64,000 nucleotides of DNA from Naegleria gruberi (Eukaryota). This document shows, piece after piece, positions 3,053 through 62,913 of the stretch (position 1 is the stretch's first letter; every line of letters begins with the position of its first letter). Made by a program: the position numbers and the translations under genes. The stretch is taken from assembly GCA_000004985.1 (NCBI GenBank), contig GG738895.1. One strand, written 5' to 3'. Under the pieces are notes generated by a model. That model was not told where the DNA came from and searched no databases. It worked only from the letters and a program-made list of their open reading frames with translations.

Positions 3053-6000
3053 ATGTCAACCCAAACAACAAAACCCTCCATTGTTCTCTTCATTAGGACC
3101 TCAAATTCATCAAAGAAGCAATCAATAATTTGTGATCATATTAGAAAGATGACTTTTGGCAAGCCCCATGAAGGTAATGCTCTATTAGTATTACAAGTTG
3201 GTTCAGAGCCAATTCTACTTGATGATCTTGTTATTAAATTGAAAGGATGGAAGATCGGACAACATGTTTCACAAGAACAACAACCTCCTCACTTTGTACA
3301 TACTAACAAGTTGCGAGATTGTTTGCAGTATTCGAAAGGTTCAACTCTTAAAAATTCTTCATGTACATTCAATGCATTGGATGTGAATGCATGCAATCAA
3401 CTTGAGAAAGGACAGCACTATGCTATTCGATTGAGTGATGTTAAATTGGCCTTTCTTCCACCTTCACTAGATTTTGATCAAGTGCAAGTTGAAATTTTCA
3501 AGAAGGATCAACTTGTTGGTGCAATTTCACATTCAAAACAAGAGGCCATCGACAGTCATATCGAAATGAGTGCAAAGAGTCTTGTTAGTAAATGGAAAAC
3601 AAAATCAAGATACGAACATTTGGATTTGATAGATGGAGTTGGAGCTGCAGATTTCATTGTAATTAATGTAGACGCTCTTATTTCAATGGCTTTAAAAAAG
3701 AGTAATGGATTGGATTGGAAAGAGCACGGTGGACAATGGTTGCATCTTGTATGGTTATGTGAAAAGATGCTCTCACTTCTAAAGTCCAGAAATGTGAATT
3801 TTGATCTAATTTGTTTTAAGAATTCAATTATTATGGATGGCAATTTCAGCTTTTTTGTTGCGAGAATGATAGTTTTCAATCATTTGAAAAAGTATTGTAC
3901 CTTTCCATGTTACTTGTTTGATTCATTATTATCAAAAGAGTGGGAGGAATATATCAGACAAGCCAATCCATCTGCAGTTATTTCAAGTGATTGCAATTAC
4001 ACAAATGCTTATTTGAATTTGATGTCTAATATTTCCTATATTGTAACAAATGTTGAAGAAGGTGCTAAATCTGTACTAGGTGATGTTTATTCAAGTGCTT
4101 ACCTATCATGGGTTAGGTCTGTAGAGCCAGAGCTAGACAATTTGTCAAAATTTTTACAAAATTCTTCAATTTCTAGCACTTTGAAGATTAGAGAATTTCA
4201 CCAATTAGAAAATGTTATGAAACAAGTTAATGAATTACAATTACATAGTAATTTTACAAGACTTGAGGTATTTTTAAGCTCTTTCCTATTATTTATTGAA
4301 AATTGTAAACAAGACAAAGTTATGGAAAGCTTGTTTTATGGTATTTCAATGATTTATTCAGTTGTCTTGTTGGATTACCTACCAATTGAAGCTAGACATT
4401 GTAATTTGAAAGAGACAATCAATGAATTGACACAATTCATGCAAGAGTTATACAAGTATTGCTCTATGGTACTATTTGAAATTGATAATTTCCAAGATAT
4501 TTCATGTGATTTATTGGATTGTAGATTGATTCATTGGCTGATTTTGAATTTCAAACCAAACAATCCATTTACACTAAATCAATGGATAGAGATTATATGT
4601 GAATTATCACCACAGCCTGTAAAAGATAGCTTGAATAAGATAGTACTATTGTTGAAAGAAAGAGTGTCATTCGATTTTGACTCTGACTTTGAATTTTCAT
4701 CTATTGTCAGCCCTTACATTAGAAATTATGCCTACGACTACAGTAATAGCAAAAACAGATGCACAGTATTAGAAGTTAAAAATAATTTCATTAACACATT
4801 CTGTAATTTACAATCTAGCTCAGTGATCCAAGAAGATTCCTTTAAAAAACCTTTATTTTATGATATTTATCACTTTCACTCCACAAGATTGATAACAGAC
4901 ACTGCAGAACATTTAGAAAGGAACAAGTATTCAACAGTTGACAAAACAAGAGAAAAGTTGAACGGAATGGTTGAATTATTTAAGAAAGTGAATAAGTGCA
5001 AAGAAATAGCAACTGAACAAGTACCAAAAGATTTAAAATTCACTGAGCATGTCAATGAAAAGAATATTATGAAAATAGTTTCTGAAAATTATGAAAAATC
5101 ACAGAAACCACTGAATGCCATTAAGGAAATTATTAGAAAACAAGAAAGTCTTGTTAAGAAAAAAGAAGACGAAGAAGAAACCTTTTCAATTTCAGAATTA
5201 GTATCAATTTCACTTACTATCCAGGAAAATATTCAACAATTTATACCTATTATGGGCAAATACAGTCCAAAGAATAACACCACAATGGTTTTTGGCAAGA
5301 AATTGTACATTCAATTATTAGATTCCTTCAAATATCAACTTCCAAAATCAAGAAAACCTATAGAATCTAAATTATTACAAAGAACAGTAGAGGGTCCCAC
5401 ATCTAAAATTTCATTGAACGAATTGGAAGAGCAAAAAGCCATGTACAGATTGTACCACGTTAATAGTTGGATAAGATTTATTTATTCATACTTGATGGAA
5501 CTAAACAGTCTATGTCTCTATTTCACTGAGAAGGAAATTGCCAAAGAATTGGAAAATCTTGCCACCTCTGCCAGAATGTTTGGATTTTGTCAAACGGCAC
5601 AATTAATTGAAAATGAAATTAGTCCAAAGAAAATTTCCAAACACGAGGAGGATATTATTGATCCAAATTATTTATTTTTATATCATTTTGAAAAAACAGC
5701 ACCAACAACACCTCCATTAGAAAGATTTACAAAGAAGAAACATAACCAAATTTTAAATGAACTAGTTCAAGAAAAGGTTCTTCTAATAGAGAAACTTAAA
5801 AAAGACTCCTCAACTAAATCTAGAGAAGAAATTTCACATGAAATCAAGAAAGTGAATGTAAATATCAAATTGAGAGAGAGTTTAACATTTACACCTGATG
5901 ATTGGCAAAATCAACTTATTTCTTATGTAAATAGAGATGAATCTGTGTTAGTCTCAGTGCCAACTTCAAATGGTAAAACATTTATTGTATTTTATTTGAT

Positions 6001-8797
6001 TGAAAAGGTGTTAAGAGAAAGTGAGAATGGTGTAGTATTATTTGTTGTGCCAAATAAGGCATTAGTCAATCAAGTTTATTGTGAAATCCAATCAAGATTG
6101 AAAAAGAATCAAAATAATATGGCCACAGCTGGTATGGCTACAGCAAATACAAGATTGGATGTATTTAATTCTCAATTACTTGTCATAGTACCTGCAATGT
6201 TGGAGATTTATTTAATGAGCTCAGCTCCAAAGGTTCTTGAGTGGAGAAAGAGAATTAAATATCTTGTCCTTGATGAAATACATTGTATAACAAGTGATGA
6301 TCAAGGTGAATACTATGAACATTGTATTCAATTATTAGATTGTCCTGTCATTGGATTATCTGCTACTTTGGGTAATTCTGAAAAATTTGCAAAATGGATG
6401 ACTCATGGATCGAGAGATAATGTACATTTAATTTATGAACCTGATTATAAAAGGTTCAATCCATTAGAATATCATAACTTTAATGGAACAGAAATTTCTC
6501 ATTCACATCCATGTGAATTATTTAATCCAAAATATCTAAATGAAAAGGAAATACAAAAATGTAGAATGATGACAATAGATGAATGTTTCCAATTAAAGAG
6601 AATGCTATTGGAAATAGATCAATCCGATGAGATGAAGGAAATAATCGAAACTCATGTTGGCTATCATTTATTGAATCGCAATAACCAATTGTCATGCATA
6701 ACTTGGAATGATCACATTCAGTACAAGCTTGGCTATAAACAATTAATGATCTACCTAGTGAATCATCCAACCAAACACAAAGTACTTTCCACTGTAGTGA
6801 GCTCATTACAAATGTCATACGCAGACGAAAATATTAAGCCAGTTGAATTTGTAGATGATATGATACACTTGATCATCAAAATGAAGAAGGAAAAGATGCT
6901 TCCCTCCATAGTATTCATTTTAGATAGGAGGATGATTGATCTTATGGTTAGAACCTTACTGCATAGAAATGTCTATTTATATGAAAATGAGGAAGATTGT
7001 CCGAGAGCTGATATTTTGAGACTAAATATTGATGATAATGATAGCGAAAAGACTATCAATAGGTATTATATTGATGCACTATCTCATGGAATTGGAGCTC
7101 ACTATGCTGGTATGAACGATGGCTATTTAATTGAAATTGAAAGACTCTTTAGAGAGAAGAAATTACCACTCATATTTACAACCTCCACTCTAGCTCTTGG
7201 TATTCATCTTCCTTGTAAAACAGTAGTTATGGCTGGAAGTTCCATTTATTTAACCAATTCACTTTTTAAACAATGTTGTGGAAGAGTTGGAAGAAGAGGA
7301 ATAGATCAGAAAGGTAAAGTTATTCTATATGGACTGAGTAAACCAAGAATTAGAAGATATTTACTGTCAGAACCTATTTCCATCAATGGAACAGTTGGCT
7401 TAAAACCAAGCTTCATTCTTAAAATGTTTACATCTCTTAATCAAGCTGAACAGGATTTAAAATCTGGTGAAAAAAATCCATTCCAAGATGCATTCCAAAG
7501 AGTATTAGAAAAACCATTATTTTCCATTAATGAAAATACAATGATTGCAACACAATCACAAATGTCATACTTTATCAGATTCCATACAGAATTTTTGAGA
7601 CAAGCAATGTTCCTTAATAAGAAATGTAATCCTCTTCAATTGAGTGGATTAATTGGACATCTCCATTATAGAGAACCTTTCAACTTTTTAATGGCACACT
7701 TTTTACAAACTCGAATTTTTGAAATGTTGGATATTAACAAGATTAGGGAACACGAATTTGATAAGATTATTTTAACCATTTTTACTTTGCTCTTTGCCAG
7801 ATATAGAGTTGGCAAACACATGTCGCAAAATACGTTGGACACTGACTTTACGAAAAACATGTCCAATATTTATAGGAAAATGATTGAGAAAAATGTTGAA
7901 TTCAATAATGAAACATTGGGAATTTATTCCAATTATGCTATTGCCTATTGTTTGAGTGAAAAATTGAAAGATGAAACCCTTCCACTTTCTGATTATTCAA
8001 CAATTATTTTAAAGGAATGTGAAAGTGAGTGCAAACTATTTACCGAATTGAAAAAGAGTCGATCTACAAATACTCACTCAATTTCTTCATTTTCTGCATT
8101 AAGTGGAAATGAAGATGGTAAATATCTAACAGAAGATCATTTCTTTTCCACTCTAAAGCATACAATTTCAATTAATAAGGCACACGTACCATTTACTAGT
8201 GCTTTGTCTGATGAAGACCATCCAATAAGTTGTTTCCTTTTGGATTACTATGGACATGGATCTTTGAAGATTCTCACAGAAGATCATCAATTTATCAACA
8301 TTGGTGCAAGCTCTAAACTTATCAGTGAAGCCATTAGAGATTTGAAGAAATTGAGAGCTAGTTTGATTAATGAAGAAATATTTTCATTTTCAATTTCAGA
8401 TTATGAACGAAAATTGGATAGTGGAGTTGTTTCTGAATGGTTAGTTAAGGAGTGTCCTTGGTTGAAGAATAATCCCAATTTAGAATTGATAACATTTGAA
8501 AAACTCTATAATTGGTTAACAAAAAACGTGCTAGAGATAGAGGTATCTGCACTGTTTCCTATTAGGGGAAATGGATTGAAGATGTTGAAAAGAAAAATTG
8601 AAAATAGATTTGCTCATCCAATTATTCAAAGTCTTGATAGAATCTTATCTAAACTTGAGGAAGGTGAAAGAAGAGAAAGACAACAATCTTTTAATGAAAG
8701 AAAAGAAATCAAACAAAAGAAACAATCATTGCGGAATGATTTGGATTCAGTTGAGAGTTTTAAGGGTATCAAGCATGCAAAATCAAATTTCATGTGA
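3053..8797 (+). CDS. Large DExH-box SF2 RNA helicase (Ski2-like or DDX60-like), 1914 aa, with a roughly 900-aa N-terminal region of unknown function.
   Basis: Helicase motif I PTSNGKT, motif II VLDEIHCI, motif V-VI region TSTLALGIHLPCKTVV and QCCGRVGRRG. Single uninterrupted ORF. Confidence 0.8.
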   Translation: MSTQTTKPSIVLFIRTSNSSKKQSIICDHIRKMTFGKPHEGNALLVLQVGSEPILLDDLVIKLKGWKIGQHVSQEQQPPHFVHTNKLRDCLQYSKGSTLKNSSCTFNALDVNACNQLEKGQHYAIRLSDVKLAFLPPSLDFDQVQVEIFKKDQLVGAISHSKQEAIDSHIEMSAKSLVSKWKTKSRYEHLDLIDGVGAADFIVINVDALISMALKKSNGLDWKEHGGQWLHLVWLCEKMLSLLKSRNVNFDLICFKNSIIMDGNFSFFVARMIVFNHLKKYCTFPCYLFDSLLSKEWEEYIRQANPSAVISSDCNYTNAYLNLMSNISYIVTNVEEGAKSVLGDVYSSAYLSWVRSVEPELDNLSKFLQNSSISSTLKIREFHQLENVMKQVNELQLHSNFTRLEVFLSSFLLFIENCKQDKVMESLFYGISMIYSVVLLDYLPIEARHCNLKETINELTQFMQELYKYCSMVLFEIDNFQDISCDLLDCRLIHWLILNFKPNNPFTLNQWIEIICELSPQPVKDSLNKIVLLLKERVSFDFDSDFEFSSIVSPYIRNYAYDYSNSKNRCTVLEVKNNFINTFCNLQSSSVIQEDSFKKPLFYDIYHFHSTRLITDTAEHLERNKYSTVDKTREKLNGMVELFKKVNKCKEIATEQVPKDLKFTEHVNEKNIMKIVSENYEKSQKPLNAIKEIIRKQESLVKKKEDEEETFSISELVSISLTIQENIQQFIPIMGKYSPKNNTTMVFGKKLYIQLLDSFKYQLPKSRKPIESKLLQRTVEGPTSKISLNELEEQKAMYRLYHVNSWIRFIYSYLMELNSLCLYFTEKEIAKELENLATSARMFGFCQTAQLIENEISPKKISKHEEDIIDPNYLFLYHFEKTAPTTPPLERFTKKKHNQILNELVQEKVLLIEKLKKDSSTKSREEISHEIKKVNVNIKLRESLTFTPDDWQNQLISYVNRDESVLVSVPTSNGKTFIVFYLIEKVLRESENGVVLFVVPNKALVNQVYCEIQSRLKKNQNNMATAGMATANTRLDVFNSQLLVIVPAMLEIYLMSSAPKVLEWRKRIKYLVLDEIHCITSDDQGEYYEHCIQLLDCPVIGLSATLGNSEKFAKWMTHGSRDNVHLIYEPDYKRFNPLEYHNFNGTEISHSHPCELFNPKYLNEKEIQKCRMMTIDECFQLKRMLLEIDQSDEMKEIIETHVGYHLLNRNNQLSCITWNDHIQYKLGYKQLMIYLVNHPTKHKVLSTVVSSLQMSYADENIKPVEFVDDMIHLIIKMKKEKMLPSIVFILDRRMIDLMVRTLLHRNVYLYENEEDCPRADILRLNIDDNDSEKTINRYYIDALSHGIGAHYAGMNDGYLIEIERLFREKKLPLIFTTSTLALGIHLPCKTVVMAGSSIYLTNSLFKQCCGRVGRRGIDQKGKVILYGLSKPRIRRYLLSEPISINGTVGLKPSFILKMFTSLNQAEQDLKSGEKNPFQDAFQRVLEKPLFSINENTMIATQSQMSYFIRFHTEFLRQAMFLNKKCNPLQLSGLIGHLHYREPFNFLMAHFLQTRIFEMLDINKIREHEFDKIILTIFTLLFARYRVGKHMSQNTLDTDFTKNMSNIYRKMIEKNVEFNNETLGIYSNYAIAYCLSEKLKDETLPLSDYSTIILKECESECKLFTELKKSRSTNTHSISSFSALSGNEDGKYLTEDHFFSTLKHTISINKAHVPFTSALSDEDHPISCFLLDYYGHGSLKILTEDHQFINIGASSKLISEAIRDLKKLRASLINEEIFSFSISDYERKLDSGVVSEWLVKECPWLKNNPNLELITFEKLYNWLTKNVLEIEVSALFPIRGNGLKMLKRKIENRFAHPIIQSLDRILSKLEEGERRERQQSFNERKEIKQKKQSLRNDLDSVESFKGIKHAKSNFM

Positions 8798-28696: not shown

Positions 28697-30636
28697 TTAA
28701 ATGTTAAAGGCATAATTGAGCTTGGCCCTTTCTAAGCAGGAATTATAGAGCAAAGATGATTCCTTTGCGTTCGAAACCAACTTACTAACCATTGGAATTG
28801 GAGAGGAAATATTGACAGGAGTTTCAGGAATAAATGGTGATTGGACAGTGTTTGTTGTTGTGTTGTTGGAAGAATCAATATCCTCCAATAAGGCATTTGG
28901 TATTATGTGTGATTGAACATCAAATTTCCATTTAGCAATTGTCTGTAAATTTTGATTCAATTGACCGAACCGTTTGTTAATTCTTTTGTATCTTTTCGAG
29001 AATTCATTCATCATTTTCAAACTATGAACAATTCCATTGAAATACTTTTGAAATTTCTCCAAGCAAAATATCGAACGAATGTCCATTCCATTAAGAATAT
29101 GGTGATGAAATTCTGCAAGAATATTCCCAAATCGGTTCACTCTATAGGTCATATAGATGGAGAGGTGAGGAAAGACAGCTATTGGGAATAGCAATGGGTC
29201 AAATATTTGCATGAGTTCATCAGCTCTATCAACTAGTGCATCAACCATTTCTCCCTCCAATCCAAGTGAAAAGAACACTGATGAAATACCAGATAAGAAA
29301 ACAAGTTCATGGAGTACGTGCTTCATCCTGGTATATTCCTCAGTGTACTTGTTTGGAAAGTTACGTAAGATTGAATTCATCATATCATTAACTTGCTGTA
29401 CAACTGTGATGGCAAGACCAGCATTTTGAGGATTAATTTCTTCTTCAATGCTTTTCAAATCAAAAGTATGATTTTCTCGATTGTATAAAGAAAATATGAA
29501 TACAATACTTGACATTACTCCATTACAACCTCTATCTTCCAATGTACATGCTTTCTGAGCCCTTATAAGTAAATGCTCAAAATCTTGAGCACCATCTCCC
29601 AAAATTCTATTCAAATGATTCAAATACGATTGAGCAACTTCGTCCTCGCCTTCTCCACCGTAATAATCACTCAATACTGCATAACTAATCTTTGTATAAA
29701 TATTGTAATCACTCTTTGTCAAGTATCTTCTAGATTCATGAGCTGCCAATTCGGCTCCTTTTGAATTAGCCAATCTCTGCTCACATAATGCTTGAATAGA
29801 GTACATCATTGACAGAAATCCAGTATTATCTCTCGAATCATCTTCATTCATCTCTTTCAACTTTAGTTTCATTTCCACATTGGTAATCAAAGAAAATCCA
29901 GGATCCACCACTTTATAAAAGAAATCAATAGTTCCAATTTACAATTATTTCTAATCAAATTATCATCCACTCCCACCAATTCTCTTCCTTTCAATATATT
30001 TACAATTTCATTCTTTGCATTCATATAGGGATGATACTTTCTAGATTCATTTGATTTCTTTACATTCTCATCATCACCATTAGTCAATTGAAATGTTAAC
30101 GCTTTTCTCTTTACTTTCTTATTTACTTCAGTATTTCCACCACTGCTACTACTGCTACAACTATTAGAAGAGGTGGAAACAGCGCAATCATTACTATTAT
30201 TCGATTCTGGTGAAGACTTGACAGAAGAGATTGGTCGTCCCCTCCTCTTTGGCTTCTCATAACAACAGGTTTTACCTCTCTGAGAACATTCGGAGCATGA
30301 TGGTAATGTCTTATCACAAAACAAATGCAAATGTCGACACGATTTACATGCTATGGAGTGATATTGTTGTTGGGCACTGGAAAGGCTTGTTGTATTATTA
30401 TTGATTGAGACTATTTGATTATTATTTAAAGTAGTGTTCCTCCTCGATTGTTGTTGACTTTCTGTTATTGTGGATGGAGATGAAAATTGCAAGTTAGTCA
30501 TGTTGTTATCTATTACTTGAGAAAAATTAGTTAATAATTGAATGGTTTTTTTTTGCTTTGTTTTACTTAGTGCTGGAAGAGATGGAATGTGCCAATGGCT
30601 TTGATGTGGTGAGGAAGAATTTGTGCGTGCGAGCAT
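28697..30636 (-). CDS. Zn(2)-Cys(6) binuclear-cluster (Gal4-type) transcription factor, two exons.
   Basis: CKSCRHLHLFCDKTLPSCSECSQRGKTC fits Cx2Cx6Cx6Cx2Cx6C. Exon 1 is 30636..29943, then a 32-nt GTAAAT..AAAG intron at 29942..29911, then exon 2 at 29910..28697. This joins the two overlapping track ORFs in frame, for about 635 aa. Confidence 0.65.
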
Positions 30637-30830
30637 GATTACTTTATTTGTATTCAAGAGGACAAATATGTGAAAATTGAAGAAATTTGTTGTTATTTGT
30701 AAAATTGGATTGCTGTGAATGCTTTATTACCAGTGTCTCTTTCAAATATTTTGTGTTTCGAACGTACATTATTGTTCCCATCTCTTGTTTTAAATTATTT
30801 GGTTTAAACCAATGCAAAAACAAAATGATT

Positions 30831-30902
30831 CTCCCATGCCGGGAATTGAACCCGGACCTCCTGGGTGAAAGCCAGGTATCCTAGCCATTGGACTACACGG
30901 GA
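30831..30902 (-). tRNA. tRNA-Glu (anticodon TTC).
   Basis: 72-nt cloverleaf with a 7-bp acceptor stem (TCCCGTG/CATGGGA). Anticodon loop CTTTCAC, T-arm GGGTTCAATTCCCGG. Identical to the copy at 40678..40749. A T-run follows the 3' end. Confidence 0.9.
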
Positions 30903-31232
30903 ATCTTGTTCATTATGAAAATAGTTCTCTTATAATATTTACAATATTTCTGTAAACAACAAATGACAAGACGCTATCTCAAGATTTTACAAACAATAGC
31001 CAGACACATTCGAATAAGTTTCCATGTGCGATTAATGAACGCTTTCTTTTATCACCAACTTTGTCTCTCAATCCTGAATAGAATTTGTTTCGATACTTCT
31101 CCCTTCCAATGAGCATCAAATTTAACCTCTAAAAAAAATAATTACGACTTCAAAGCACCAACCGATTTTTTATTGATTTGTGTCTCTTTGAATAACAGAA
31201 TCTTTTTATACAAACAAACAACATAACAACAA

Positions 31233-34139: not shown

Positions 34140-34871
34140 TGAGAGATCAGTGTATGGGATTTCAGTGTATTTGGTCCATGGGTTTTGAATTGGGAAACTA
34201 AATGTTGATGTATTTAGTGTTTTTTGTTTTTCATATTGTTGTTTTTATAATTTCCAAAATATTGATGATGGTCAAGTGATAATTGTTTGCGCGGTATTCC
34301 AATATGACAAGAAAGTGTACATCAAGATGATATGTTGACGATGAAATTAATTTCCAACAATAAAACACGACCGTGATGATGATTAAAAATTTTCTCTTCT
34401 TGGCTTTTTCTACTTACGCTTCATAAACGTTGAATTCACCTCTCTTATCAGCAACAGCAACAGTGTCGACAACATCTGGAACAACTGAAGCAGGTAAAAT
34501 TCCTTTAGGGAAGAAGTTCTTGTTGAGGACGAGCATTTCGTTGACGAAACGATAGCCGGTAGCGGCAAGACCACGGAGCATTTTTTTTGAGTTGAAGCGA
34601 TTTTACAATAGTGAGCATTTATGGTTTTAATAGAGAACATAACAGCTGCTAAAGCTAGTAAGAACAATATTATGGCAATCACAACAACAATTGTTTTTCA
34701 ATAATTTCCAATATTCAATGATGACAAGAAAGTGAGAGGGAGTTTTTATTCATATTTTGTTTTAATTAAAACAAAATTGATGAGAGGCTTTCGTTCCGAA
34801 TTTTTTTTTACGTTAGGTTTGTGATTGAATTCCTACAAACACTGGAAGCCTCTAAAAAACAAACAAAAAAA

Positions 34872-40528: not shown

Positions 40529-40677
40529 ATTAAATTTTAGCATATTGAAAGAATTATTTGTAAACTCAGTAATATTAACTCCTTTTGCCAACTATCTCTT
40601 TTAACAAAATGCTAAAATTTCTATTGGAACTTGGTAACCAAGTGGCCATTAAGGGATTATTTTCATTCTGAATGTAT

Positions 40678-40749
40678 TCCCGTGTAGTCCAATGGCTAGG
40701 ATACCTGGCTTTCACCCAGGAGGTCCGGGTTCAATTCCCGGCATGGGAG
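40678..40749 (+). tRNA. tRNA-Glu (anticodon TTC).
   Basis: TCCCGTGTAGTCCAATGGCTAGGATACCTGGCTTTCACCCAGGAGGTCCGGGTTCAATTCCCGGCATGGGAG. Identical to the minus-strand copy at 30831..30902. The downstream T-run AATCATTTTGTTTTTG is shared. Confidence 0.9.
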
Positions 40750-40816
40750 AATCATTTTGTTTTTGAATTGTTTTGAATTGGTATTCATTTAGAGATAAAC
40801 AGAACTCTCTTAAAAA

Positions 40817-45856: not shown

Positions 45857-48800
45857 TTATTTAAAAGGTTTTTGTGCTTGTCTAATAATCATGTATAAAT
45901 GTGAATCTTGGAATGAATCATTCCTATCATAGATTGATAACAATTTTTCAATTAATTGAATTGGATCAAAATTGCATTGAGATGGTGGTTTTAACAGTGA
46001 GTGATAATATTTTGAATTGTAAACAATTTTTCCATTTTCATCAATATCACCTCTTCCAAAGGCTTCCATTTCTATTATATTATGAGGTTTTGGGGCCACG
46101 GATAAGAAATTGCAAATAATTGATTGTTCCCATTCATTCTTGAAATATAATGAACATGAAAGAATGAATAAATCTGGAAGGAATCTATTAAGTTTTGCAA
46201 TTCTAGTCACTCTATCAAATTGTGAATTCACAGAAGGGATAGAAAGTGAAAGATTATCATATAATAGTTCATCACTGATATGAATTCTTCTACTGAATCT
46301 ATTCAATGTGAAATTAATTCCTTTTCCATTTTCATTAATAAATTTAAATATTTGATTGGCTTCGTATGGACATATTAAAATTATATAATTATCATTCAAG
46401 GAGTGAACAAACCAATCTATTGGTCTCTTGTAATAATCAATTTTAGAGTCAATTGTTGAAATGACAACATTTTTCATACTTTTGGTTGCATAAATGTTAC
46501 CATTCCAAATATTAGGGAGATTGTAAAGTGCAAAAGTATCAGATAATAATTCTTTAACATTTAACATGGTGGAGATATTTGGCTTGAATCCCATAATTAG
46601 CAATTTCAAATTAGTGTCCAATTCAGGAATACAGGGTTCTAATTGAGGAGGTCTAAATACTTGCTTTTCTTCTTCTAATTCATTTTCCAATTCTCTTTCT
46701 TGTTCTTCATTCAGTGTTTGTGAGAATATTTCCATAGTATTGGTTGACAGTTTTTCAATAATTTTTGAAATATTACTCTCAAATATTGTACAAAGATTCT
46801 TTGTGTGTAACGATCTAAAATGTAATTCTTTCAATTTAAATATTTGTGATAATAATTGCTTCTTTCGTTCTAATCCATAAAATGATTGTAATTCAAGTAT
46901 TTCATCTTCAATATATTTGTCATAGTATTGTTGAATAAGTATTGATTTTCCTAATTCTTGATTTAACCATAGTTTATGACTGTAAATCAATCCTTGGACA
47001 GCCCATTGTAATAAATGATCCATTTCCATTTGTTTTGTATTGAAATGTGTCCAGTTAATTATTTCTCTTGTATTGACAGTATTATTCTCTGATAATTTCT
47101 TAATATGTGAATCAACTTCTTTGGATGCCCAGAATGAAACGGTGTGTCCATTCACAGAACATAATTGTCTCATTCTCATGCATGCTTGAACGAACCTTTC
47201 ATTTGAAAGACCATTTCCTAAAGTAACAGCAGCTCTTGTACTTTCTGGAAATTTAATATCCGTCCCTCTTGTATGTACGTCATCTATGTATGTAACACAT
47301 TGTTCTAACTTGTTTTTATATGGAGACAAATCAAAATTAGTAACATGATTATATCTATCTATGACAGTGAGTTCATCATTATCATTAAAATATATTGCAG
47401 CATGGATTTCGTTTGGATTTGAAATTTCTAACCAATATTGTGCCAATTCTTCATTTGTCATTTCTAACATTAGTGCTCCAACGTCTAGTAATACTCTTGT
47501 TGTTTTTTGTGAATTAGCAATAGATTGAATAATGTCTTTGCATGATTGTTCATTTGAAATAACGTGATATTCTTCATTCCTCAAAATGAATGATTCAACA
47601 TTTTTAGAAGTATCTAGTAATTCTTCTAATTCATTTGATTGAATCGAAATTGGTAATAAAAATGATTTTGTGCCACTGAAACCGCTTGATTGATGATTCT
47701 TTTGATTACTTAAATTCCAAGATGAGGAAGTCAACTTTTTAGGAAATTGTTTGCATTCTTTTGGAAATACACACTTATTTAAATAAAAGTCAATAGCTGC
47801 CATTGAATATTTAAAAAATGGAAAAACTACTTCCATTTTTTGATGATAATCGGATAAGTTAATATTTGATAAAGATTTCAATTGTTCAGGTATTTGATTC
47901 TGACCTTCTTCGACCCATTTACAATATTCCTTTTCTGGGTCATCCAATGATAGCAATTCTTCGAATATATATTCAAGTTGAGAATTATCTAATCCACTAT
48001 AATAATAGCTTAATAATGTTAATAAAATTGCGATATCTGGATGACCATATTCAGATCTTTCAGATGGTACGTCTTTGGCTCTAAATGGAACGGCAATTGA
48101 TCTGTTAAAACCAACTCCATAATTAACTCTCCATCTTCTTTCTAATACAAGCTCCAAGGTTCCATACGCTAATAATCCTCTTAGTATTAATAATGATTCC
48201 CACTGGCTTTCTTTAGAATATTGTCTAATTAATTTCAATGTAGAATCATTAATTTCTTCACATGTCAAAAATTGTTTAAATAAAAGTCTATGTTCTGGCT
48301 TGATAGAAATGAAAATTCCTTTCAAGTTTCCATCAAGAATATCATTAACAATATTTTCTACAAGCAATTCAAAAGCTTTTGAATCTAAAATTCTCAAATG
48401 AGGAAATGAATGTTCAAAATTATTCATTTCCCTAAGTTCGACACAAGACGACCCAAATGAATCGAATAAACCTTTAGAATGTTTCTTAATTGATCTAAAT
48501 ACTTTTTGTAAAACATTCCAACGTTGATCTCTACCATCAATTTTTAATTGATTTCCAATTGTATAAATTAGTTGATACCTGGCATGAAGGATTTCATCTG
48601 ATTCATCTAATAAATCTCTACAATTATTTTCTAACCAATCTTGAACTTTAAATAATTGTTGAAAAAGGTCCGATTTAGATTTGATAGATTCAATACATTT
48701 CAATTCAAATGATAATCTATATTCGGGAACTGTGATGAGAACGCCTCTAGCTTTCATACAATTCGAATATAATGTTTGCAGTAACTCACAATCTAGTACT

Positions 48801-51800
48801 TGATGATCTCTATTAAATGGTGTTACTAGTACTGGTTTATCCAATATTCCACCCAATTTGAATCTTAGTGAGTTATAATTTGATGACAGTAGAGATTTTA
48901 AAACAGTTAATCTAACTAATTGATTTTTGTTCTTTCCAAGTTCTAATATTAACATTGGAATGATTACAGATGATTTACCCTCTCCCATATTAAATTGCTG
49001 CAATATATATGATTAAATGAAAGAAATTAATAAATTATACATACCATTACCATATTATTATGTGAATGAATCATATGATTTGCAACTCTAACTTGAACTG
49101 GTCTAATCATTATATTCATTTCTATTTCTAATATTAACCAATATGGATGGTCAGATGGCTTCCAATTTTCATGACCCTTGTTTTCTAATTCTCTTGAATG
49201 AAGTGTTGTCATTTTGGAATACTCTAAAGCTTTTAATCTTTCAGCTCTTTGCAATAATGTTATTAAAACTCCATAACAACCAACTAAATTTTTCAATTTT
49301 TGATTAGTTTGGTCATCTAATAGTAATTTTAAAATATTGGTCTTTGTTACTCGTGGCCATAAGCCAGCAATATAGAGTGCTTGATTGGTGGTATTATCAT
49401 TTGGATGTAACACTTTTTGTATTAAATCTTCCATTTCCATATAAAGAATTTCAACATTATCATCAACTTGGCCAGTTTCAAAGACTCTAGTTGAGAATTC
49501 AATAATATTACTACTCAAATTATTTAGTTGATCAAAATAATCAACCAAAAAGGTCCATTTAGGTTTGCATGGACAATCTTGAATTTGTTTGAAAATTAAA
49601 GGGAATCTACTTGGTATGGTGTATGATGGCAAGTTATTCACCATAACTTGCAACTTTTCAAGGTAAGTATGGAGTTGATAATTTGCTTTCCTTTCCTCAA
49701 ATATAGTTCTCATCTTTTCCTTGTACGTATCCAGAATTAGACTGGATGATTCGAATGAAATATAAATACTATTAGAAGTTTTAAATGTTGAATAGGTATT
49801 AAGTAAATTATTGCTCATTTTTAACTTTTCCTCTGCGATTCTGTTATCATATTTATCTTGATTTTCTCTTGATAGTGTAACATATAAATCTCTGAATGAC
49901 CTTTTATGGTTGTCCAATATTTCTTGTATAGTATATGCATATACATCACATTCCTTGATATTCCTTTCCTTCTCAGAATGTGGATATGAGTACATGATTT
50001 TATCCTTATTAAGATAAATTAACCCTAATAAATTAACTAGCGTCTCATCAAATTCAAAATACATCAGCATTGTTAAAAAAATTATTAATTTTCTTTTAGA
50101 AAATTGTTGAATTTCATCGGTCAGTTTTGAAAAACACGACTTGATATCAACTGTCATCCAACCTTCAATAGTTTTCAAATCTGTTTTGCAATTCTGTGTT
50201 GAATTGATAATAGATTTTATACTATTCAAAGGTCCAAACATATTGTTCTTCAAAGAGTAACATAATTGTCTGCACTTATTGATTTCTTTGGCGTCGGAGT
50301 GAGTTTTCATCCAAAAACTAGAATCAGAGGATTCACTGTCTATTTCACAATCTTTAGAGTAATAGTGAATATCTTTAAAATACGCCTTCCAATAGAGTAA
50401 ATTTAGTATTATTTTTACTCTTTTCAATACTAATAGCTGAAAATAATTTTGAATTTTCTTTCTTAATTCGTTCGCATAATATCATATAGGAGTCTAATTG
50501 TACAATAGACGATAAATTATTATTCCATGTCGTTACTTGCATATCAGTTAAATGTTCTGGATAATAAGATCTCTGTGGAGATAATGTCGATATTAATTCA
50601 AGTAATTCAATCTCAAACTCTTTCATTGGAATATGTAATTGATAACAACGTTTAGATTTCAAGATAGATATTGCAGCTTCATATCCACACAATTTGGTGA
50701 ATGGATCAGGTAAGAAGTAAGAAGTACATCCATGCAAATATGCTAAATACAACCAACTTGCTAAACTTTGCTCTGCTTCCAATCTTTCCAGTTGTGCATT
50801 GACAGTATAGGTGAAGAAGGGAGGAGATGAAACAGAATTTAAATCAATATCTACTTTTACATGACCACTAATGTCTCTAGCTACTTGAATATCTCCATTA
50901 GGAATTACTAATACTGTATTTTTCGAATAGTTATCAACTAATTTGAGCCCTTTTTGCAATCCAATTAATGTTCCTATTTCAAAGTTAGTGGATACTGTCA
51001 TTCCAAATTGTTTACAAATAAATTGTGAGTAATTATTGGACAGAATAAATATTAATCCTTTTCTAGGTAATTCAACAAAAAGAGTATTATCTTGATAGTA
51101 AGAATGTACATGTTCATCTTTTTCAATTCTGCTCATAATTTTCATTATTTCTGTAAATATTTTACTTCTATTGTCTATAAAATATTTCTTATCCTTCATA
51201 TCTAATAACAATCTACTATTCAAATTCAAAGTATAATGAACCTTTGAGAAATTGGTATCTAAGAAAAACATTGGTCTAAATAAAATACAATTAGATTCCT
51301 TATCAATCCAATGACCATATTTTTCTTTGAGTTGAAAAGGTAAATCTTTTGCAAAATATTCATGCGGAAAATAAACTTTTTCCTTATTGTCCTTGGTTAT
51401 TTCACTGATAATTAAAATTTCTTGCTCGATTTGTGATATTAATTTAAATTTGAAAAAGCTTCCACCAAATGTGTTCTTAGTCACAAAGGACTTGAATTCT
51501 GATCCTGGTTGTACATCAAGGACTATTTAGTGTCAATACATCAACATTCTTCATATACTTACCCATATTTTGAAAAATTCTTTGATATTCATTGCTTTTT
51601 GTAATTATTTCTGGTAGCCGTCCAATAGGAGCATGATTTATCAATAATGTTCCGTTAATAATGTTAACTTGGATGAGAACTTCGTTAAATTTAACATAAT
51701 ACCAATTTTCAGATTCTGCATATTGATGCCATTTCAAATTCAATTCTTCTAAATTTCTAACTTCACTCCATTTTTCTTTCAGGAAAATGTTTAATTCAGA

Positions 51801-54800
51801 GCTATCTTTTAACGAATCATGAATTGAATCTTGAATTAATTGTGATGTCTTGATTGTTTCTCTGAACAATAACTTTCTAAATTGAGGGAGTGTATTTAAA
51901 CCAATATTATTCAAAAGTAAATTTTCGTAAATTATTGATCTCGCAAGCAACCATTTAGAAAAATCTCCTAGTAATCTCTGGGAAGAAAAAGGATGAAAAG
52001 TTAAACAGCAGCAACAAGCTGTTTCAGTTTGCAAGTTTCGAATGTTTGTGCACTCGATCGGATTGTCAATAATTTTGAGCAATACTTGTTCACTTTTAGA
52101 TAACCACACAAGGCAGAGTTCTCTAATATCAAGTAATAATTTCTCAACTCTGTTATGCAATCTAGTATTTTCACACATTTCCAAAAATTTTTTGGCACAA
52201 AATACAATGATTACTAATTGATTAATAGATTTCCAATTATTTTCAATTTTTTTCAATAATTTCTGAAGTAGTGAAACAAGCTCATTTGAAAAATTCAAAT
52301 CTCGAACAGGATCATTTGTTTCTCTCCACCAATCTCCTTTGGAAGGGCATGATTGTAATAAACTTTGGAGAATTAAAAAACAAACATCTTGTTCATCAAA
52401 AGAGAGTACGTTATTTGAAAGAACTTTGGCTAAATTATGCATTTGAAGACGATAGCCAGCCCTAAATGATCCAAATTCTATAAATTCTGTAAGAGGAAGT
52501 TTAGGATGACAATTAATTTGAGAGGATAAAACATCATTCTGGTTGTGGCAATAATTTCTAAGGAAAGGAATCAAGCTATTATACCTTCCATTCTTGTCTA
52601 GTAAAAATGAGCATTCTTCAACAATACTGGATTTTGAGAAATGTACGTACTTTCCATCGATAGAAATTCGAAGATTCAGAGCGTTTCTTTTTATAAATTC
52701 ATCTTCAGAATTCCTTGGGTGGTGTTGCTCTTTAGAGTAATGGGATCTCAAATAAGATTTTTGAGAGCTTGTTAAACTAACTCTATTGTGTTTAGTGTTA
52801 GAGTTGTGGTTTCTTAAATACTCTTTCCAAATTTCAGTGCAACCATTAGCTTTTTGCCTTGGATTGTAGTAGTTTACAATTTCAAAGAACTCAATCAATA
52901 CATTGCTCAAGCATCTAAACTCATCAGGAATTAGTAATTCAAAAATAACAGCATTTTTCAAATAATCCTCTTCTGGTAGAACTTTTTCGTATGGCGTAAC
53001 ACTCATTTCACTTGCCCGGTTCTGGTAGTAACATTTCGAACAATGAGATCTGCATTTGTAACGGCGATGGTATTCACTATAATATTCATCATGGGAAATT
53101 TTGCTAGCTTGTTCCAGGTATTCCTGATACGTTTGTTTTGCTTTTCTAACTTCATCTTTTTTAGCTTGGATTTTCTCTTGAATTTCTTTTTCAATATTTT
53201 CTCTCAACCGGATCATAGTTGGATTTCTGTTTGCATATCTGACAGAAAATGAATTTCGGCTTATTTCTGAAAGAAAATCAGGTTGATAAATAGCTGACTG
53301 TTCGAAATTATTGAAATAGGTTTCAAGTTCGAATAGATATTTCCATTCATCTTTTCTATTGAGGTTAATATAATTGAAAATTGAGGTATCAATACCAGTC
53401 TTGTACTCTTTAACCATAGATGATTGTTTTTGTGCAAATTCTATTAACTTTCTAATGATATTTAGACAAGTGAGAATCATTCTACTGAATCCCATTGGAT
53501 CAGTGGCATAAACTGTTTTTGCCACTACTACGTATTGTGTAAATAGGTTATTTAAATTATTAGGTGTACAGTGATAGTCTGTTATCATGTTCTTTCTAAC
53601 CCATTCTTCAATAATAAATAATTCAGATAAAGATGCTTCACCACCGTCTGTTTGACTAATCGTAAATTGAGAAATACTAAAAGATCTATTGAATGATTTT
53701 GGAACAATTTCACTTTCGTCAACTGTTTGTTGTTCTATTTCTCTGTAAAGGTTAATGACTTTTTCAGACTCAACCAATTGTTGATAAATATTATCAGACT
53801 TGTTGGCTGCTGAACCTAAAGTCAAATTAATTTTGGAGGTATCACTGCAAATAATATTCCAATTATTATCCAGATATTTTCTTTGTTCAGCAATAAACTT
53901 GTAGGCATAAGTCAAAATATGCTTGGTTTTAGGATCGTGCAAATCATCCAACTTTTTAAGTCTAATTGCTAGTTTTGAAATAACTTGTAATTTTACCTCA
54001 TCACTCATTTCATGGAAGTGCTTGTTAGCAATATGAATGAAATATTTCATCAATACTGCCTTATAATAAACTTTTCCATCATTCTCGCCATACTTCCAAA
54101 CAAGTAACAATTGCAAAATAATTTTGATGGACATCCACAATCCAGATCTCCTGTAAGGATGCATGGCATTGCTCCATTCAATTGAATTTCTAATCTTTTT
54201 GTTGATCATCTTCTCGTGAGCTAATTCACCACCAAGAAGAGCAACCAACCACTCTGTGATAATTACTGAAGAAACTACATCACGCCCTTCATCTTCTTTA
54301 CTGCCAGCTTTTGTTGATTTTGGTCTTATTTGACCTATTTGATTCGAAAACAAATCTTGCAACAAAGTGGCAAGCTCATCAGAGCAAAGCATTGAGAGAT
54401 TCTCATCCTTGACACTGATAGTAACCTCAGGATAAAGTGTTACAAGATCGCCACACCTAGACATAATCTCCTTGTTGTTTGGATGCACTGTAAATACTGA
54501 AACTTTAGCAGATTGTCCCTTCTCCTTACGAATGATCAAACATGCATTACAGTTTTGAATATAGAGAGGAAGTATAACATTAGCATTGGTATCAAGTAAA
54601 CTTTGTACTTGGCCACCGTCTAAACCAAGTTTGGAGTCAATCTCATCCACATCTTCTTGAACAGACATCCAATTTGTAAATGCCTTCTGAACATCTGCAA
54701 ATTCAACGGCTAATTCATCCATTTTCAAAAATTGGACAAACTCTAAAAGATGAAGTAAATCATAGCCAACAGTCTCTTGTGATGGCAATTTTTTCAATAA

Positions 54801-54842
54801 AAACAAGTCACACAAGAATGTGTCTAGAAATTGTGTTGACAT
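45857..54842 (-). CDS. Giant protein of about 2940 aa from an uncharacterised family, with a GEGKSS P-loop-like motif (DUF3638/DUF3645-like). Rebuilt from four ORF-track fragments.
   Basis: Exons 54842..51563, 51522..50504, 50436..49045 and 48997..45857, all in phase. The introns are 40 nt (GTAAGT..AAATAG), 67 nt (GTACAA..TTATTTTCAG, weak donor, least certain) and 47 nt (GTATGT..TTGCAG). The NMGEGKSSVIIPM motif opens the last exon. Confidence 0.6.
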
Positions 54843-54899
54843 TTTTTTGATTATTGACTTCTGACTACTCGCCTACAACACTCTTATTGATAATTAGGA

Positions 54900-54990
54900 G
54901 GTTGTGAATTCCCAACCTCTTCTGTTTATGTTTTCCGAAGGGTTGGGAAGTCTAACAAATTTTTTCCGAAGGTTGGGAAGTCTGAACATT
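54900..54990. promoter_or_regulatory. Second copy of the 19-nt element GGTTGTGAATTCCCAACCT, about 58 nt upstream of the giant-gene ATG, followed by two tandem units of about 32 nt that each carry the half-site GGTTGGGAAG.
   Basis: Exact 19-mer at 54900..54918. The tandem units are TTTTCCGAAGGGTTGGGAAGTCTAACAAA and TTTTTCCGAAGGTTGGGAAGTCTGAACATTT. Confidence 0.6.
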
Positions 54991-55040
54991 TTTTTAATTT
55001 TTCGGAGTGCAATATTGGCGGCTTTGAAAGATTGTTGGTG

Positions 55041-57686
55041 TTAAAATAATCCATCCTCAATCCATTGAATGGCTGTACGTCGATCTTCTGTGAAAACCAC
55101 TCTAGTAATTGCCTCTCCTTCTTTTTCATGAACAGTGAGATAACCAGATCCTCTATCCCTCAGAATGGCTTCACTCTTCTGTTTCTGAAAGGTGTTTGCA
55201 GTGTTAACAGAGTAGCATAAATCCTTGCAATAAGTATCGCATCCATAAAACGATTCCTGCTGACACACGTTGGAAATCATGCTGTCGTCACTGTAGTAAG
55301 TGCTATCGGATGAGTGAATGCTTTCACCATCGTAATCAGGATCCATTTCTTCTTCCGTTTCATCATCTAAATAAACAGATTCAAATTGATCTTCAATAAC
55401 ATCGACTAGGGTTTTGAGAATTGTGTCGTCTTGAATGAAATTTCTCAATTGTTCATGAACTTGCTCTGGTTGTAAATTCAAATTTTCCACAAACTCATCT
55501 CTGAACCTCTGGAGATTATAAGTTTTCCTAGAGTTCATAAAAGAAAAGTACTCTTGAATTAGCTCTGTTTTAGACGCTACCAAAATGTGGGCCAAAGTGA
55601 TATCACTTGCAATAACATAATCTCTTCCAGAAAACTCTGCAATATCTTGAGCTAGTTTGAAATTATTGGCTAAAAATTGCTCACTTGCTTGTTGGATGAG
55701 CATCTTGCCATTTGGAAGTACATTTGTATCATTTTTGTAATCCATGAGAACTTCTTCAATTAATAAATTAATACGTGCTTTAGGAAGAATTAAATCTTTT
55801 CTTGTTATGAATTCTGGACCAAGACCTTGTGAGATTGAATCTTCCTTTTCATCATCTATAGTTTCATTCTCGTCCTGAATTTCATCCTCTTCAGCAGGTG
55901 GTTTTGAATTTGGTCTTCTTTTTAATATTTTAATAAGTGGCCAGTTGTCTTCGTCATAGGGTAGCTCACTAAAAGAGTTTGTTTCCTCTAAATACTCTCC
56001 TTGATAGGGATTCCATCTTACTAGTTCGAGTTCTTCGAGGGGTTTTCTAATTTTTCTCAAATTTTCATTATATATATAATCCGTATATGGATTTCTCTTT
56101 CGCTTCAAAGAGGTTTGATTTTTGACCTGACTTTCAAGCCATTCATAAGACAAGCCGTACTCACTTTCAGATTCGTCAGAAATATAATCATCGTATTCAT
56201 ATGATCTTTCGAGCCATGTTTCCACAGTAACAAACTCTTTCAAAGGTTCATGCTCTTCTTTTTCTCTCCATTGCACCGAAGTGGAATATTCATCTCCACC
56301 ATCAAACCAAACATCTGCATCCATTTTCTCCAAAGAAAGTTTGTGAATATCATTCAGTCTATCTACTTCCTTAATTTTTTCATTGATTTTGATAGCTACT
56401 TTGATATCTCCATACTTTTCTTGAAGAAGCCTATATATTTTTTCCTTTTCAGAGCTTTCATCAATTTGAGATAGAATACAAGGTGTAAGTCTCTTACCAT
56501 TATAAATAATTCTTGATTGTACAAAAGGGTTCGCAAAATACTTGTTAATTAACAAGTCGGAGATTTCAACATTTCCTCTTTGGATGGAATAATGAAGAGC
56601 TGTCAGACCAGCTGCATCATGAATGTATGTTTTCACATGCGCTTCAAGAGGAACATTTAAACTTGGATTATTAGAAATATTGGCAAGATTAGAATGGAAT
56701 TTAGTGCCCACATTCAGACACCACTCTAATAGAGTCGAACTACTGATCCAAACAGCCAAGTGTTGTAAATAAAAGCTCTTTGACATTGGAGGTATCAAGA
56801 ACTCTAAGGACTCTGTTCTCTTAAAATTCATCTTAATGCCAACATCACAAAATCTCATTCTTTCCACCTTGATTCCACAATCTCTAAGTCTTTTCATAAT
56901 TTGGGTTACCATACAAGTGCTGCTACCATCAATCAAAGTATTGATACCATTAAACTTTTCTACAATATATAACAAGTACTTTCTTGGAATACAAGAGGAA
57001 ATACCATCCAATTCATTCCAACATGTTGTGATATCGTCAAATAGACTTGGTGTTTCAATAACATTCAATAGATTTGTATTGAACACAATCTGATCATTCC
57101 ACTCAATTTCATTTGGTTTCTCCTCCCAAGAATTCACCAATTTAACAGCAGGTTCCAATAATTTCTCAAAAAACATTTCAATCATAACATTAACTTGATT
57201 CGATCCAAGATGAGCCAGCATCTCTCTTCCAATACATACCTGAATCAAAGCTTTCAACATTAGAATATTTTCTTCTGTTGATGAATATGCATCAAGCCAC
57301 TCTGCAAATTTTTCAAATAAATTGCCTTGCTCATCATCATCCGATTCATAACAAATCAACTCATCATTACCTTTGTAATAGACAACCAACTGATCATCAT
57401 GTTTAGTAAAGTCCTTGAATTTGTTTCTTTGTGTTCGGAACAATAATTTATCAATGAAGGCATGAGTTGGAAAGTACATTCCTACAATATCAAAATATTC
57501 CTTGTTTCTAAATTGACTCAAAAAGGGCTGCCAAAAACCTTCCCGATCCTCACTTATTACTCGGAAGGTTTTATTGATATGTCTAAAGGTGAGAATTTGA
57601 CGAAATAATTGATAGGGATCGCATTGCAAGTAAAAGATGTTTTGCAAAATTTCACAGGGAAGATCGTCAAGGTTGGGTGAAACCAT
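55041..57686 (-). CDS. F-box-like/ankyrin-repeat protein (881 aa).
   Basis: N-terminal LPCEILQNIFYLQCDPYQLFRQILTFRHINKTF. Ankyrin repeat AAGLTALHYSIQRGNVEISDLL. Acidic stretches. Confidence 0.55.
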   Translation of the reverse strand: MVSPNLDDLPCEILQNIFYLQCDPYQLFRQILTFRHINKTFRVISEDREGFWQPFLSQFRNKEYFDIVGMYFPTHAFIDKLLFRTQRNKFKDFTKHDDQLVVYYKGNDELICYESDDDEQGNLFEKFAEWLDAYSSTEENILMLKALIQVCIGREMLAHLGSNQVNVMIEMFFEKLLEPAVKLVNSWEEKPNEIEWNDQIVFNTNLLNVIETPSLFDDITTCWNELDGISSCIPRKYLLYIVEKFNGINTLIDGSSTCMVTQIMKRLRDCGIKVERMRFCDVGIKMNFKRTESLEFLIPPMSKSFYLQHLAVWISSSTLLEWCLNVGTKFHSNLANISNNPSLNVPLEAHVKTYIHDAAGLTALHYSIQRGNVEISDLLINKYFANPFVQSRIIYNGKRLTPCILSQIDESSEKEKIYRLLQEKYGDIKVAIKINEKIKEVDRLNDIHKLSLEKMDADVWFDGGDEYSTSVQWREKEEHEPLKEFVTVETWLERSYEYDDYISDESESEYGLSYEWLESQVKNQTSLKRKRNPYTDYIYNENLRKIRKPLEELELVRWNPYQGEYLEETNSFSELPYDEDNWPLIKILKRRPNSKPPAEEDEIQDENETIDDEKEDSISQGLGPEFITRKDLILPKARINLLIEEVLMDYKNDTNVLPNGKMLIQQASEQFLANNFKLAQDIAEFSGRDYVIASDITLAHILVASKTELIQEYFSFMNSRKTYNLQRFRDEFVENLNLQPEQVHEQLRNFIQDDTILKTLVDVIEDQFESVYLDDETEEEMDPDYDGESIHSSDSTYYSDDSMISNVCQQESFYGCDTYCKDLCYSVNTANTFQKQKSEAILRDRGSGYLTVHEKEGEAITRVVFTEDRRTAIQWIEDGLF

Positions 57687-61586: not shown

Positions 61587-62762
61587 TTATTTCTCATTCA
61601 ATTTCTGTTCCATGAACAGGTTTTCGTTTTCGATCAGTTCCTGCTCCTCCAGGGAATAACTTTCTTTAAGCTCCAAATAAATTTCATAAAAAGCTCCAAA
61701 CCATGAGAGGACAGAACATGCCACATTCTTGAAATGTTCAACATTATGACCACAATGAACACCTACTATTCTGCTGGAAAATTTGTGTGACTGGATATAG
61801 TCTTTGAAAGCAGTTTTGTTCTTTTGCAAAATATCAGATGTTCTATAAAGATCCATAAACTCATTGACTTGATGGTTTCCTATAAATATTGGCCCACCAG
61901 AGCTAGATTCGGTCGTTGTAGCATTGTGGAAGATCTTATTTTCCTTAATATCAGTGATCCACCCAAGTGAAAATTCTACCGCTTCCTTTGGTATCATTCT
62001 ACTCAGTGTTAAAAAATCAATGCCTATTTCTTTTGCTTTCATTTCTATTGACTTTAAAGATGGAGAACATAAACCAACAAGTAAAATGTTGTAAACATCA
62101 TCCTCGCCTGTAGATTCATTAGCTGCAAGCGAGGGTGAGGGTATAACATTTCCTCCAAATTGATCTTTAGAAATGCTACAATCTGATCCCTCAAACGAAA
62201 GCAAAGCCCAATCTTGCGAAACATTGTTCCTCTCATATTTTCCACATTTTACAACCTTGCACGAGATGGAATCTGTTCTCTCAAATAAATCTCTGACATT
62301 AGTAAAACTAACAACTAGATTTTTCACTTCAAAATCTACTCCATCTTTGCTCTGGTGAGACACAACACAATGAGCACAAGTTATCAAGTAATTAATTGAA
62401 TTCTCTCTAAATGGTGATATTAGAAAGGCTGTTCCTGTGGTAATTACTTGTTGCAAGGGTTTGTTTGGTTGAGTCAGTTCCATCTCGGCAACAATGGTGC
62501 ACGTTCTTTGTTTTAAATACTTTAAATGTTGATTGCAATTGTAGCATCTAATATACTTTGGAAGAATGTATTGATGGTGGACTGTATCATCACATTCATC
62601 ATTAGTACCTGATTTCCAATTTGGGTCCTTCTTAAAAATTAGAGTTTCAGAAGAACAATCCTCATCACCAGCTGGTTGATTGTTTAGGTGTGAATTACTA
62701 ACAACAAAATTAAGATTCAAAATTTCCAACTCTTCAACAAAATCCTCCTCTGTTGAATGCAT
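61587..62762 (-). CDS. Trypsin-like (PA clan) serine peptidase-domain protein with a Cys-containing N-terminal region.
   Basis: His motif YLITCAHCVVSH. Asp context QDWALLSFEG. Ser motif TTESSSGGPIFIG, where canonical is GDSGGP. Confidence 0.55.
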   Translation of the reverse strand: MHSTEEDFVEELEILNLNFVVSNSHLNNQPAGDEDCSSETLIFKKDPNWKSGTNDECDDTVHHQYILPKYIRCYNCNQHLKYLKQRTCTIVAEMELTQPNKPLQQVITTGTAFLISPFRENSINYLITCAHCVVSHQSKDGVDFEVKNLVVSFTNVRDLFERTDSISCKVVKCGKYERNNVSQDWALLSFEGSDCSISKDQFGGNVIPSPSLAANESTGEDDVYNILLVGLCSPSLKSIEMKAKEIGIDFLTLSRMIPKEAVEFSLGWITDIKENKIFHNATTTESSSGGPIFIGNHQVNEFMDLYRTSDILQKNKTAFKDYIQSHKFSSRIVGVHCGHNVEHFKNVACSVLSWFGAFYEIYLELKESYSLEEQELIENENLFMEQKLNEK

Positions 62763-62913
62763 TTTTTAGGTTGAGATCACAACCAATTTTGATCTTAGAG
62801 GTCGCCTTAATACTGAGTGAAAGAACCTAAATTTTGCAAGCTAACCCACGCACACAGTTGTCGGACCAGCAAAGACGTAATGTGCAAACTAACAATAATT
62901 GTTTTCCTATTTT

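Follow-up and report, generated by a model that had tools for sequence, protein, structure and literature searches.

We identified a palindromic DNA motif close upstream of the start codons of three enzyme genes in a 64-kb stretch of the Naegleria gruberi genome (hereafter, the window), to which all motif counts below refer. The motif is real, non-random and promoter-proximal, and it is common to a gene for a DDX60-like DExH helicase (gene A), a gene for a 2950-aa divergent SF2 motor ATPase (gene B) and a gene for a candidate trypsin-like serine protease (gene C). Judging from its letters, it is most probably a transcription-factor site, which would make it a new instance of a well-known class of feature. 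Our favored explanation, held with modest confidence, is that it serves as the site for a dimeric sequence-specific DNA-binding protein that would co-regulate at least three lineage-restricted genes. As far as we are aware, and as our literature searches also indicate, cis-regulatory sequences and the specificities of transcription factors are almost entirely uncharacterized in Naegleria and other Heterolobosea; a search for start-site data for N. gruberi found nothing useful. The window is ordinary nuclear DNA of a free-living amoeboflagellate. It is gene-dense, eukaryotic DNA with a G+C content of 29-37%, and its genes include those for a PAS-adenylate cyclase, SelO, G-alpha, topoisomerase III, SCAMP, MRG, Ras, RCC1 and RGS.

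The motif was first described in an initial annotation as a 19-nt near-palindrome, GGTTGTGAATTCCCAACCT, occurring exactly twice. Our search recovered both copies on the + strand, at 2973-2991 (site A) and 54900-54918 (site B), and allowing up to three mismatches yielded nothing new except these two sites read on the reverse strand (0.02 expected). The inverted repeat that had been reported around a GAATTC core was confirmed as a near-palindrome at both sites, and at site B it is longer, reaching 22 nt (GAGGTTGTGAATTCCCAACCTC, 54898-54919). Among the 32 GAATTC sites of the window, extended complementarity of the flanking bases was found only at sites A and B (5/8 and 7/8 positions, respectively). 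The distances to the start codons also agreed with the original description: 62 nt from the end of site A to the gene A ATG (3053) and 58 nt from the start of site B to the gene B ATG (54842, minus strand), with the centers of the GAATTC cores lying 71.5 nt and 66.5 nt upstream. Seen from its gene, site A has the sequence GGTTGTGAA/TTCCCAACC and site B the reverse complement, the duplex being the same. Because the flanks of the two sites could not be aligned in either orientation, a duplicated promoter was rejected as their source. Another inverted repeat, GTTTGT-N12-ACAAAC, surrounds a GAATTC at 34817-34840, approximately 40 nt upstream of the topoisomerase III ATG (34872); its likeness to the motif is loose (GTTTGTGA vs. 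GGTTGTGA) and out of register, and may be due to chance.

A one-mismatch search with the half-site TTCACAACC yielded a match, ATCACAACC, at position 62776, and through it a related palindrome, GGTTGAGATCACAACC, at 62769-62784 (site C). This site, absent from the initial annotation, is located 7 nt upstream of the gene C ATG (62762). Its arms are those of the 19-mer, GGTTGNGA and TCNCAACC, and since its center is GATC rather than GAATTC, the arms stand 2 bp closer together. Given this different arm spacing and the distance of only 7 nt from the ATG, site C may work differently from sites A and B, for example as an operator-like block or a leader hairpin.

We then assessed the half-sites statistically. 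The pattern GGTTGNGA-N0-6-TCNCAACC had three matches against 0.00 expected (100 shuffles), each within 75 nt of a start codon, and eight of the ten matches to GGTTGNGA fell in the three promoters. In the 150 nt preceding each of 20 well-defined ATGs, the core GGTTGNG/CNCAACC was found eight times in total, compared with 0.9 expected. All six matches to GGTTGNGAA in the 64 kb were confined to the intergenic regions of sites A and B; the count of this half-site alone was modestly enriched (6 vs. 2.4 expected), with 3 of 100 shuffles reaching 6. Across the eight half-sites, GGTTGNGA is invariant save at position 6, which is T, G or A, and all four G-type half-sites are preceded by GAAG with 0-1 nt inserted, giving GAAG(N)GGTTGGGAA. 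One-mismatch variants of the half-site elsewhere occurred at about the chance rate, nearly all of them outside start-proximal regions. Promoter-proximal enrichment of the motif therefore holds within this window. Copies within coding sequence had been named beforehand as an observation that would speak against a promoter element; inside the window, no copy of the palindrome lies in coding sequence. The anatomy of the motif, its confinement to three start-proximal regions and its unshared flanks are seen directly.

The initial annotation had also held that a chance 19-mer match was essentially impossible, which is too strong when the question concerns any 19-mer. In first-order Markov simulations of the window, the mean number of repeated 19-mers was 0.30, and 7 of 30 simulations contained at least one. 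The motif is, besides a duplicated tRNA region, the sole exact repeat of 19 nt or more in the window; that region comprises two tRNA-Glu(UUC) genes (30803-30904 and 40676-40777) in a 102-nt inverted repeat, 97% complementary, with the copies 9.8 kb apart. The case against chance rests instead on the palindromy of the motif, its relatively high G+C content, the clustering of half-sites, the promoter position and the existence of a third site.

Site B is accompanied by additional copies of the motif. Tandem Repeats Finder (TRF) reported a 30-nt tandem repeat at 54931-54995 (2.1 copies, 88% matches). GAAG(G)GTTGGGAAGTC is present in each unit; the half-sites occupy 54941-54949 and 54971-54979, and GGTTGGGAA is found at 54941 and 54971, once per unit. 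The half-sites at gene B are spaced 30 and 32 nt apart, approximately three helical turns. Unit 2, GGTTGGGAAGTCTGAACA, matched the full palindrome pattern with three mismatches, so the tandem units resemble decayed copies of the whole site. The array at site B looks like three tandem copies of one element, the two distal ones apparently decayed in their right halves. The repeat that had been described as tandem half-site units is therefore real, but its units resemble decayed whole palindromes rather than plain half-sites, and the reported three half-sites become four, two in the palindrome and one in each unit.

Tandem amplification and decay at site B would also be expected of a family of short dispersed palindromes (mobile, recombinational or foldback in origin) that survives between genes and has no regulatory role. 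Sites A and B match in 19 of 19 positions, among them two non-palindromic ones and positions that vary among the other half-sites, and both have the same + strand reading, which suggests copying over independent selection. This identity exceeds what a degenerate binding site would need and hints at a recent common origin. Three copies per 64 kb would, moreover, extrapolate to many across the N. gruberi genome of approximately 41 Mb. Against such a repeat, the unit is just 16-22 nt long, and neither common flanks nor terminal repeats nor target-site duplications were found. Each of the three copies is found no more than 75 nt upstream of an ATG, for which a rough estimate gives p ~0.004 even if insertions were limited to intergenic DNA. 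Viral and metagenome collections contained no related copies beyond the estimated chance number: a scan for GGTTGKGAATTCMCAACC returned 55 metagenome and 4 viral matches, close to the estimated chance level; all came from unrelated organisms, most were perfect palindromes, and none was similar to the window by blastn or tblastx. A literature search for the motif string returned only unrelated papers, none on Naegleria. We consider a repeat of this kind unlikely. The more specific notion that the copies are mobile-element ends, as 19-bp direct repeats flanking 52 kb, was rejected because the interior consists of housekeeping genes, with SelO, G-alpha, Top3, SCAMP, MRG, Ras and RCC1 between A and B. 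An ORF that also lies between the two sites (29887-30657, minus strand) encodes a fungal-type Zn(2)-Cys(6) binuclear cluster domain (E 1.5e-5). Its product is a candidate sequence-specific DNA-binding protein, with no link to the motif. Sites of the Zn(2)-Cys(6) family typically carry CGG triplets, and the palindromic motif has none.

The position of the motif between genes raised a further alternative, namely a signal of general use that punctuates the space between tandem genes (for example as a terminator, an insulator or part of the core promoter) and is not specific to a regulon. All three sites lie between same-strand neighbors, a consensus scan called site B terminator-like, and the element occurs in 3 of approximately 20 well-defined promoters, a high proportion for a specialized regulon. 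In addition, the gene upstream of gene B is predicted to be polyadenylated within the array. An AUUAAA hexamer at 54993-54998 (minus strand) is the likely poly(A) signal of this upstream gene, which is ankyrin/F-box-like (55041-57686). In N. gruberi, AAUAAA or AUUAAA is followed by cleavage 15-20 nt downstream, and the median 3' UTR is 39 nt (PMC11529991). The hexamer, read from 54998 to 54993, would place the 3' end of the upstream gene near 54975, within tandem unit 2, which leaves approximately 130 nt for the promoter and leader of gene B. On the other hand, most tandem gene pairs in the window have no such element, the upstream stop codon is 422 nt away from site A, a distance far greater than the median 3' UTR, and 3' ends in N. 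gruberi are mainly specified by AAUAAA (PMC11529991). The short 3' UTRs, the distance of site A from the upstream stop and the 3' end predicted in unit 2 argue for a promoter role over a 3'-end role, and a general punctuation signal seems very unlikely.

According to our favored explanation, a dimeric or higher-order sequence-specific protein would recognize the element as double-stranded cis-regulatory DNA. The half-site would be GGTTGNGA(A); genes A and B have a pair of them, facing each other across GAATTC, some 70 nt ahead of the ATG. At gene B, the two extra half-site units, about three helical turns apart, could support cooperative, multi-copy binding, and at gene C the same arms would be presented 2 bp closer, beside the start codon. 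The factor might couple the transcription of the three genes, either activating them on a signal or repressing them until a signal arrives. Protein binding, co-regulation and the direction of the effect are what we infer from the pattern of the letters. A single variable position, position 6, in an otherwise invariant half-site fits a pattern of protein contacts. The initial annotation had proposed a dimeric site that co-regulates two NTPase genes. Its account of the site agrees with a motif that is non-random, palindromic and promoter-proximal, but the set is not limited to two NTPase genes, as a protease gene joins it.

The same palindromy would allow the element to act in RNA, as a 5'-leader hairpin (GGUUG-loop-CAACC) through which an RNA-binding protein, or the hairpin itself, controls the translation or stability of the three mRNAs. 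Owing to the palindromy, the sense strand reads 5'-GGUUG...CAACC-3' at all three genes, and site C, only 7 nt from the AUG, is probably transcribed. Site B is predicted to fold with moderate stability (-11 kcal/mol, z = -2.6), and in a longer predicted structure (-26 kcal/mol, z = -2.3) the left arm of the palindrome is base-paired to tandem unit 1. However, site A folds no better than shuffled sequences (z = -0.5), and one stem position is mismatched at all three sites (U-C, G-A and U-U). The sense strands of genes A and B differ in their loop and mismatch bases despite the identical DNA duplex, and the isolated half-sites upstream of site B would have no role in a simple hairpin model. A known RNA family was rejected, since Rfam gave no significant match; the one match returned, mir-186, was at chance level (19 bits vs. 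a gathering score of 70, E 0.42). That an identical duplex is oriented oppositely at genes A and B is easier to reconcile with a symmetric DNA site than with an RNA signal. Together with the single variable position, the half-sites at helical spacing, the weak hairpins and the lack of an Rfam match, this favors a DNA site, and we regard control through an RNA hairpin as doubtful.

We next characterized the genes that carry the motif. Gene A (3053-8797, + strand; NAEGRDRAFT_72082) encodes a DDX60-like DExH helicase of 1914 aa, and its ORF is 100% identical to XP_002672714 across all 1914 residues. The protein contains DEAD, ResIII and Helicase_C domains and a DEIH motif. Its earlier assignment as DDX60-like was supported by a best PDB match to kDDX60 (E 9e-59), compared with 1e-28 for MTR4, and the precomputed Pfam list in the protein database includes PF26076 (WHD_DDX60). 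A PIN-like_DDX60 domain was not detected in gene A and is present in the homolog P0003. The kinetoplastid kDDX60 was reportedly solved within a translation initiation complex, a role other than immunity. Gene A also matched the Hachiman HamB helicase models of PADLOC, as expected of a Ski2-like core. No close homolog of gene A was found, the best match covering 21% of its length at 28% identity. Genes A and B both start with AAAAAA..ATGTCAAC.CAA (Met-Ser-Thr-Gln); this shared start is probably a coincidence, because in the window A-rich sequence commonly precedes the ATG and starts reading ATGTC are frequent.

Gene B (45857-54842, minus strand) encodes a 2950-aa protein with DUF6606 at the N-terminus, followed by DUF3638 and DUF3645. 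It is a single gene with three GT-AG introns of 40, 46 and 47 nt (51562-51523, 50418-50373 and 49044-48998): joining its four ORFs gives a frame of 2950 codons with a terminal stop only, and the DUF3638 profile is continuous over the third junction. The giant P-loop gene with a GEGKS motif that had been described is recognizable as a divergent SF2 motor ATPase, as an alignment with 36 homologs revealed the SF2 motifs NMGEGKS, DESDE, SGT and QACMRMR. The structural model of the ATPase region has a pLDDT of 79.8, and a Foldseek search against the PDB gave weak matches only, mostly to SF2/SecA-type motor ATPases; these matches to a predicted model confirm the fold class, not the function. The sole public protein that we found for gene B is NAEGRDRAFT_81119, a 966-aa product of the last exon only, whose UniRef name is 'ubiquitinyl hydrolase 1'. 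For the N-terminal DUF6606 ORF (1108 aa), no database entry was found, N. gruberi proteins included. The nearest homologs of the C-terminal part are approximately 36% identical and occur in bdelloid rotifers, fungi and Hydra. None of the PADLOC defense models matched gene B. Literature searches on DUF3638, DUF3645 and DUF6606 turned up nothing beyond passing mentions, and a search with gene and protein identifiers found nothing.

Gene C (61587-62762, minus strand) encodes a 391-aa trypsin-like serine protease candidate with a weak match to Pfam Trypsin_2 and the triad motifs TCAHC, DWALL and SSGGP. Only seven homologs were found among 1.84 billion representative proteins. The best match in a library of representatives at 50% identity reached just 38% identity, and the public gene set may therefore lack this protein. 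On the basis of these comparisons, genes A, B and C are all lineage-restricted. The palindrome was absent from the loci of two distant homologs (L060 and L061), the latter containing one half-site-like match.

The nature of these genes bears on the proposal of the initial annotation that the motif marks a stress or defense regulon, for which the support is circumstantial: the genes are lineage-restricted, and gene A resembles HamB models. The defense-regulon idea is speculative. In its full form, the palindrome would be the operator of an inducible defense-like regulon in which one factor switches on the helicase of gene A, the ATPase of gene B and the protease of gene C, taken to be intracellular, together, and we regard this as quite unlikely. 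If true, the motif would be a heterolobosean counterpart of the interferon-stimulated response element, tying DDX60-type helicases to inducible immunity outside animals. Whatever its function, a long, well-defined palindrome at three promoters offers a practical handle: the factor could be purified with it as a probe, and the regulon delimited genome-wide with it as a query. The marked genes encode large lineage-restricted enzymes of a sort often found in conflict systems, and a regulon built on them could reveal how the amoeba responds to infection or stress. With three sites per 64 kb, the motif could also be common, in which case it might serve many genes or promoters in general, and recognizing such a general element in N. 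gruberi would be useful as well.

Finally, we compared the motif with known motifs and systems. Like bacterial-style operators and intrinsic terminators, it is a GC-richer inverted repeat in AT-rich DNA, and site B was terminator-like in the scan; it differs in belonging to a eukaryotic nuclear genome with AAUAAA-directed 3' ends (PMC11529991) and in forming weak hairpins. Two classes of GAA/TTC-containing eukaryotic elements were rejected by inspection. The heat-shock element consists of alternating nGAAn and nTTCn with 5-bp phasing, and the STAT/GAS site is TTC-N3(4)-GAA. In the motif, GAA and TTC abut without a 2-nt spacer, the tandem units have TTC-C-GAA with a 1-nt spacer, and the TTC-N3(4)-GAA spacing occurs in no copy. 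For NF-kB/Rel, the consensus is GGGRNWYYCC. The reverse-strand core of sites A and B, GGGAATTCAC, fits 9 of its 10 positions, and GGGAA half-sites recur, but kB sites do not include the invariant outer arms GGTTG/CAACC. An NF-kB site was rejected, as site C, with its GATC center, and the tandem units (GGGAAGTCTA and GGGAAGTCTG) fail the consensus. By these comparisons, the motif could not be matched with any known factor. Interferon-stimulated response elements lie upstream of vertebrate DDX60. The motif resembles them as a promoter element common to a DDX60-family helicase and other large, fast-evolving enzymes, but it has no sequence similarity to the GAAANNGAAA type.

The comparison closest to our favored explanation is with the sites of dimeric eukaryotic transcription factors and their homotypic clusters. 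The motif differs from these in being long (18-22 nt), in being identical at two genes and in having one member whose arms are 2 bp closer. It shares with dimeric-factor sites two inverted half-sites of 8-9 nt with one non-contacted position, and with homotypic clusters the additional half-sites spaced by helical turns, the placement of the sites no farther than 75 nt from start codons and their occurrence at several unlinked promoters.
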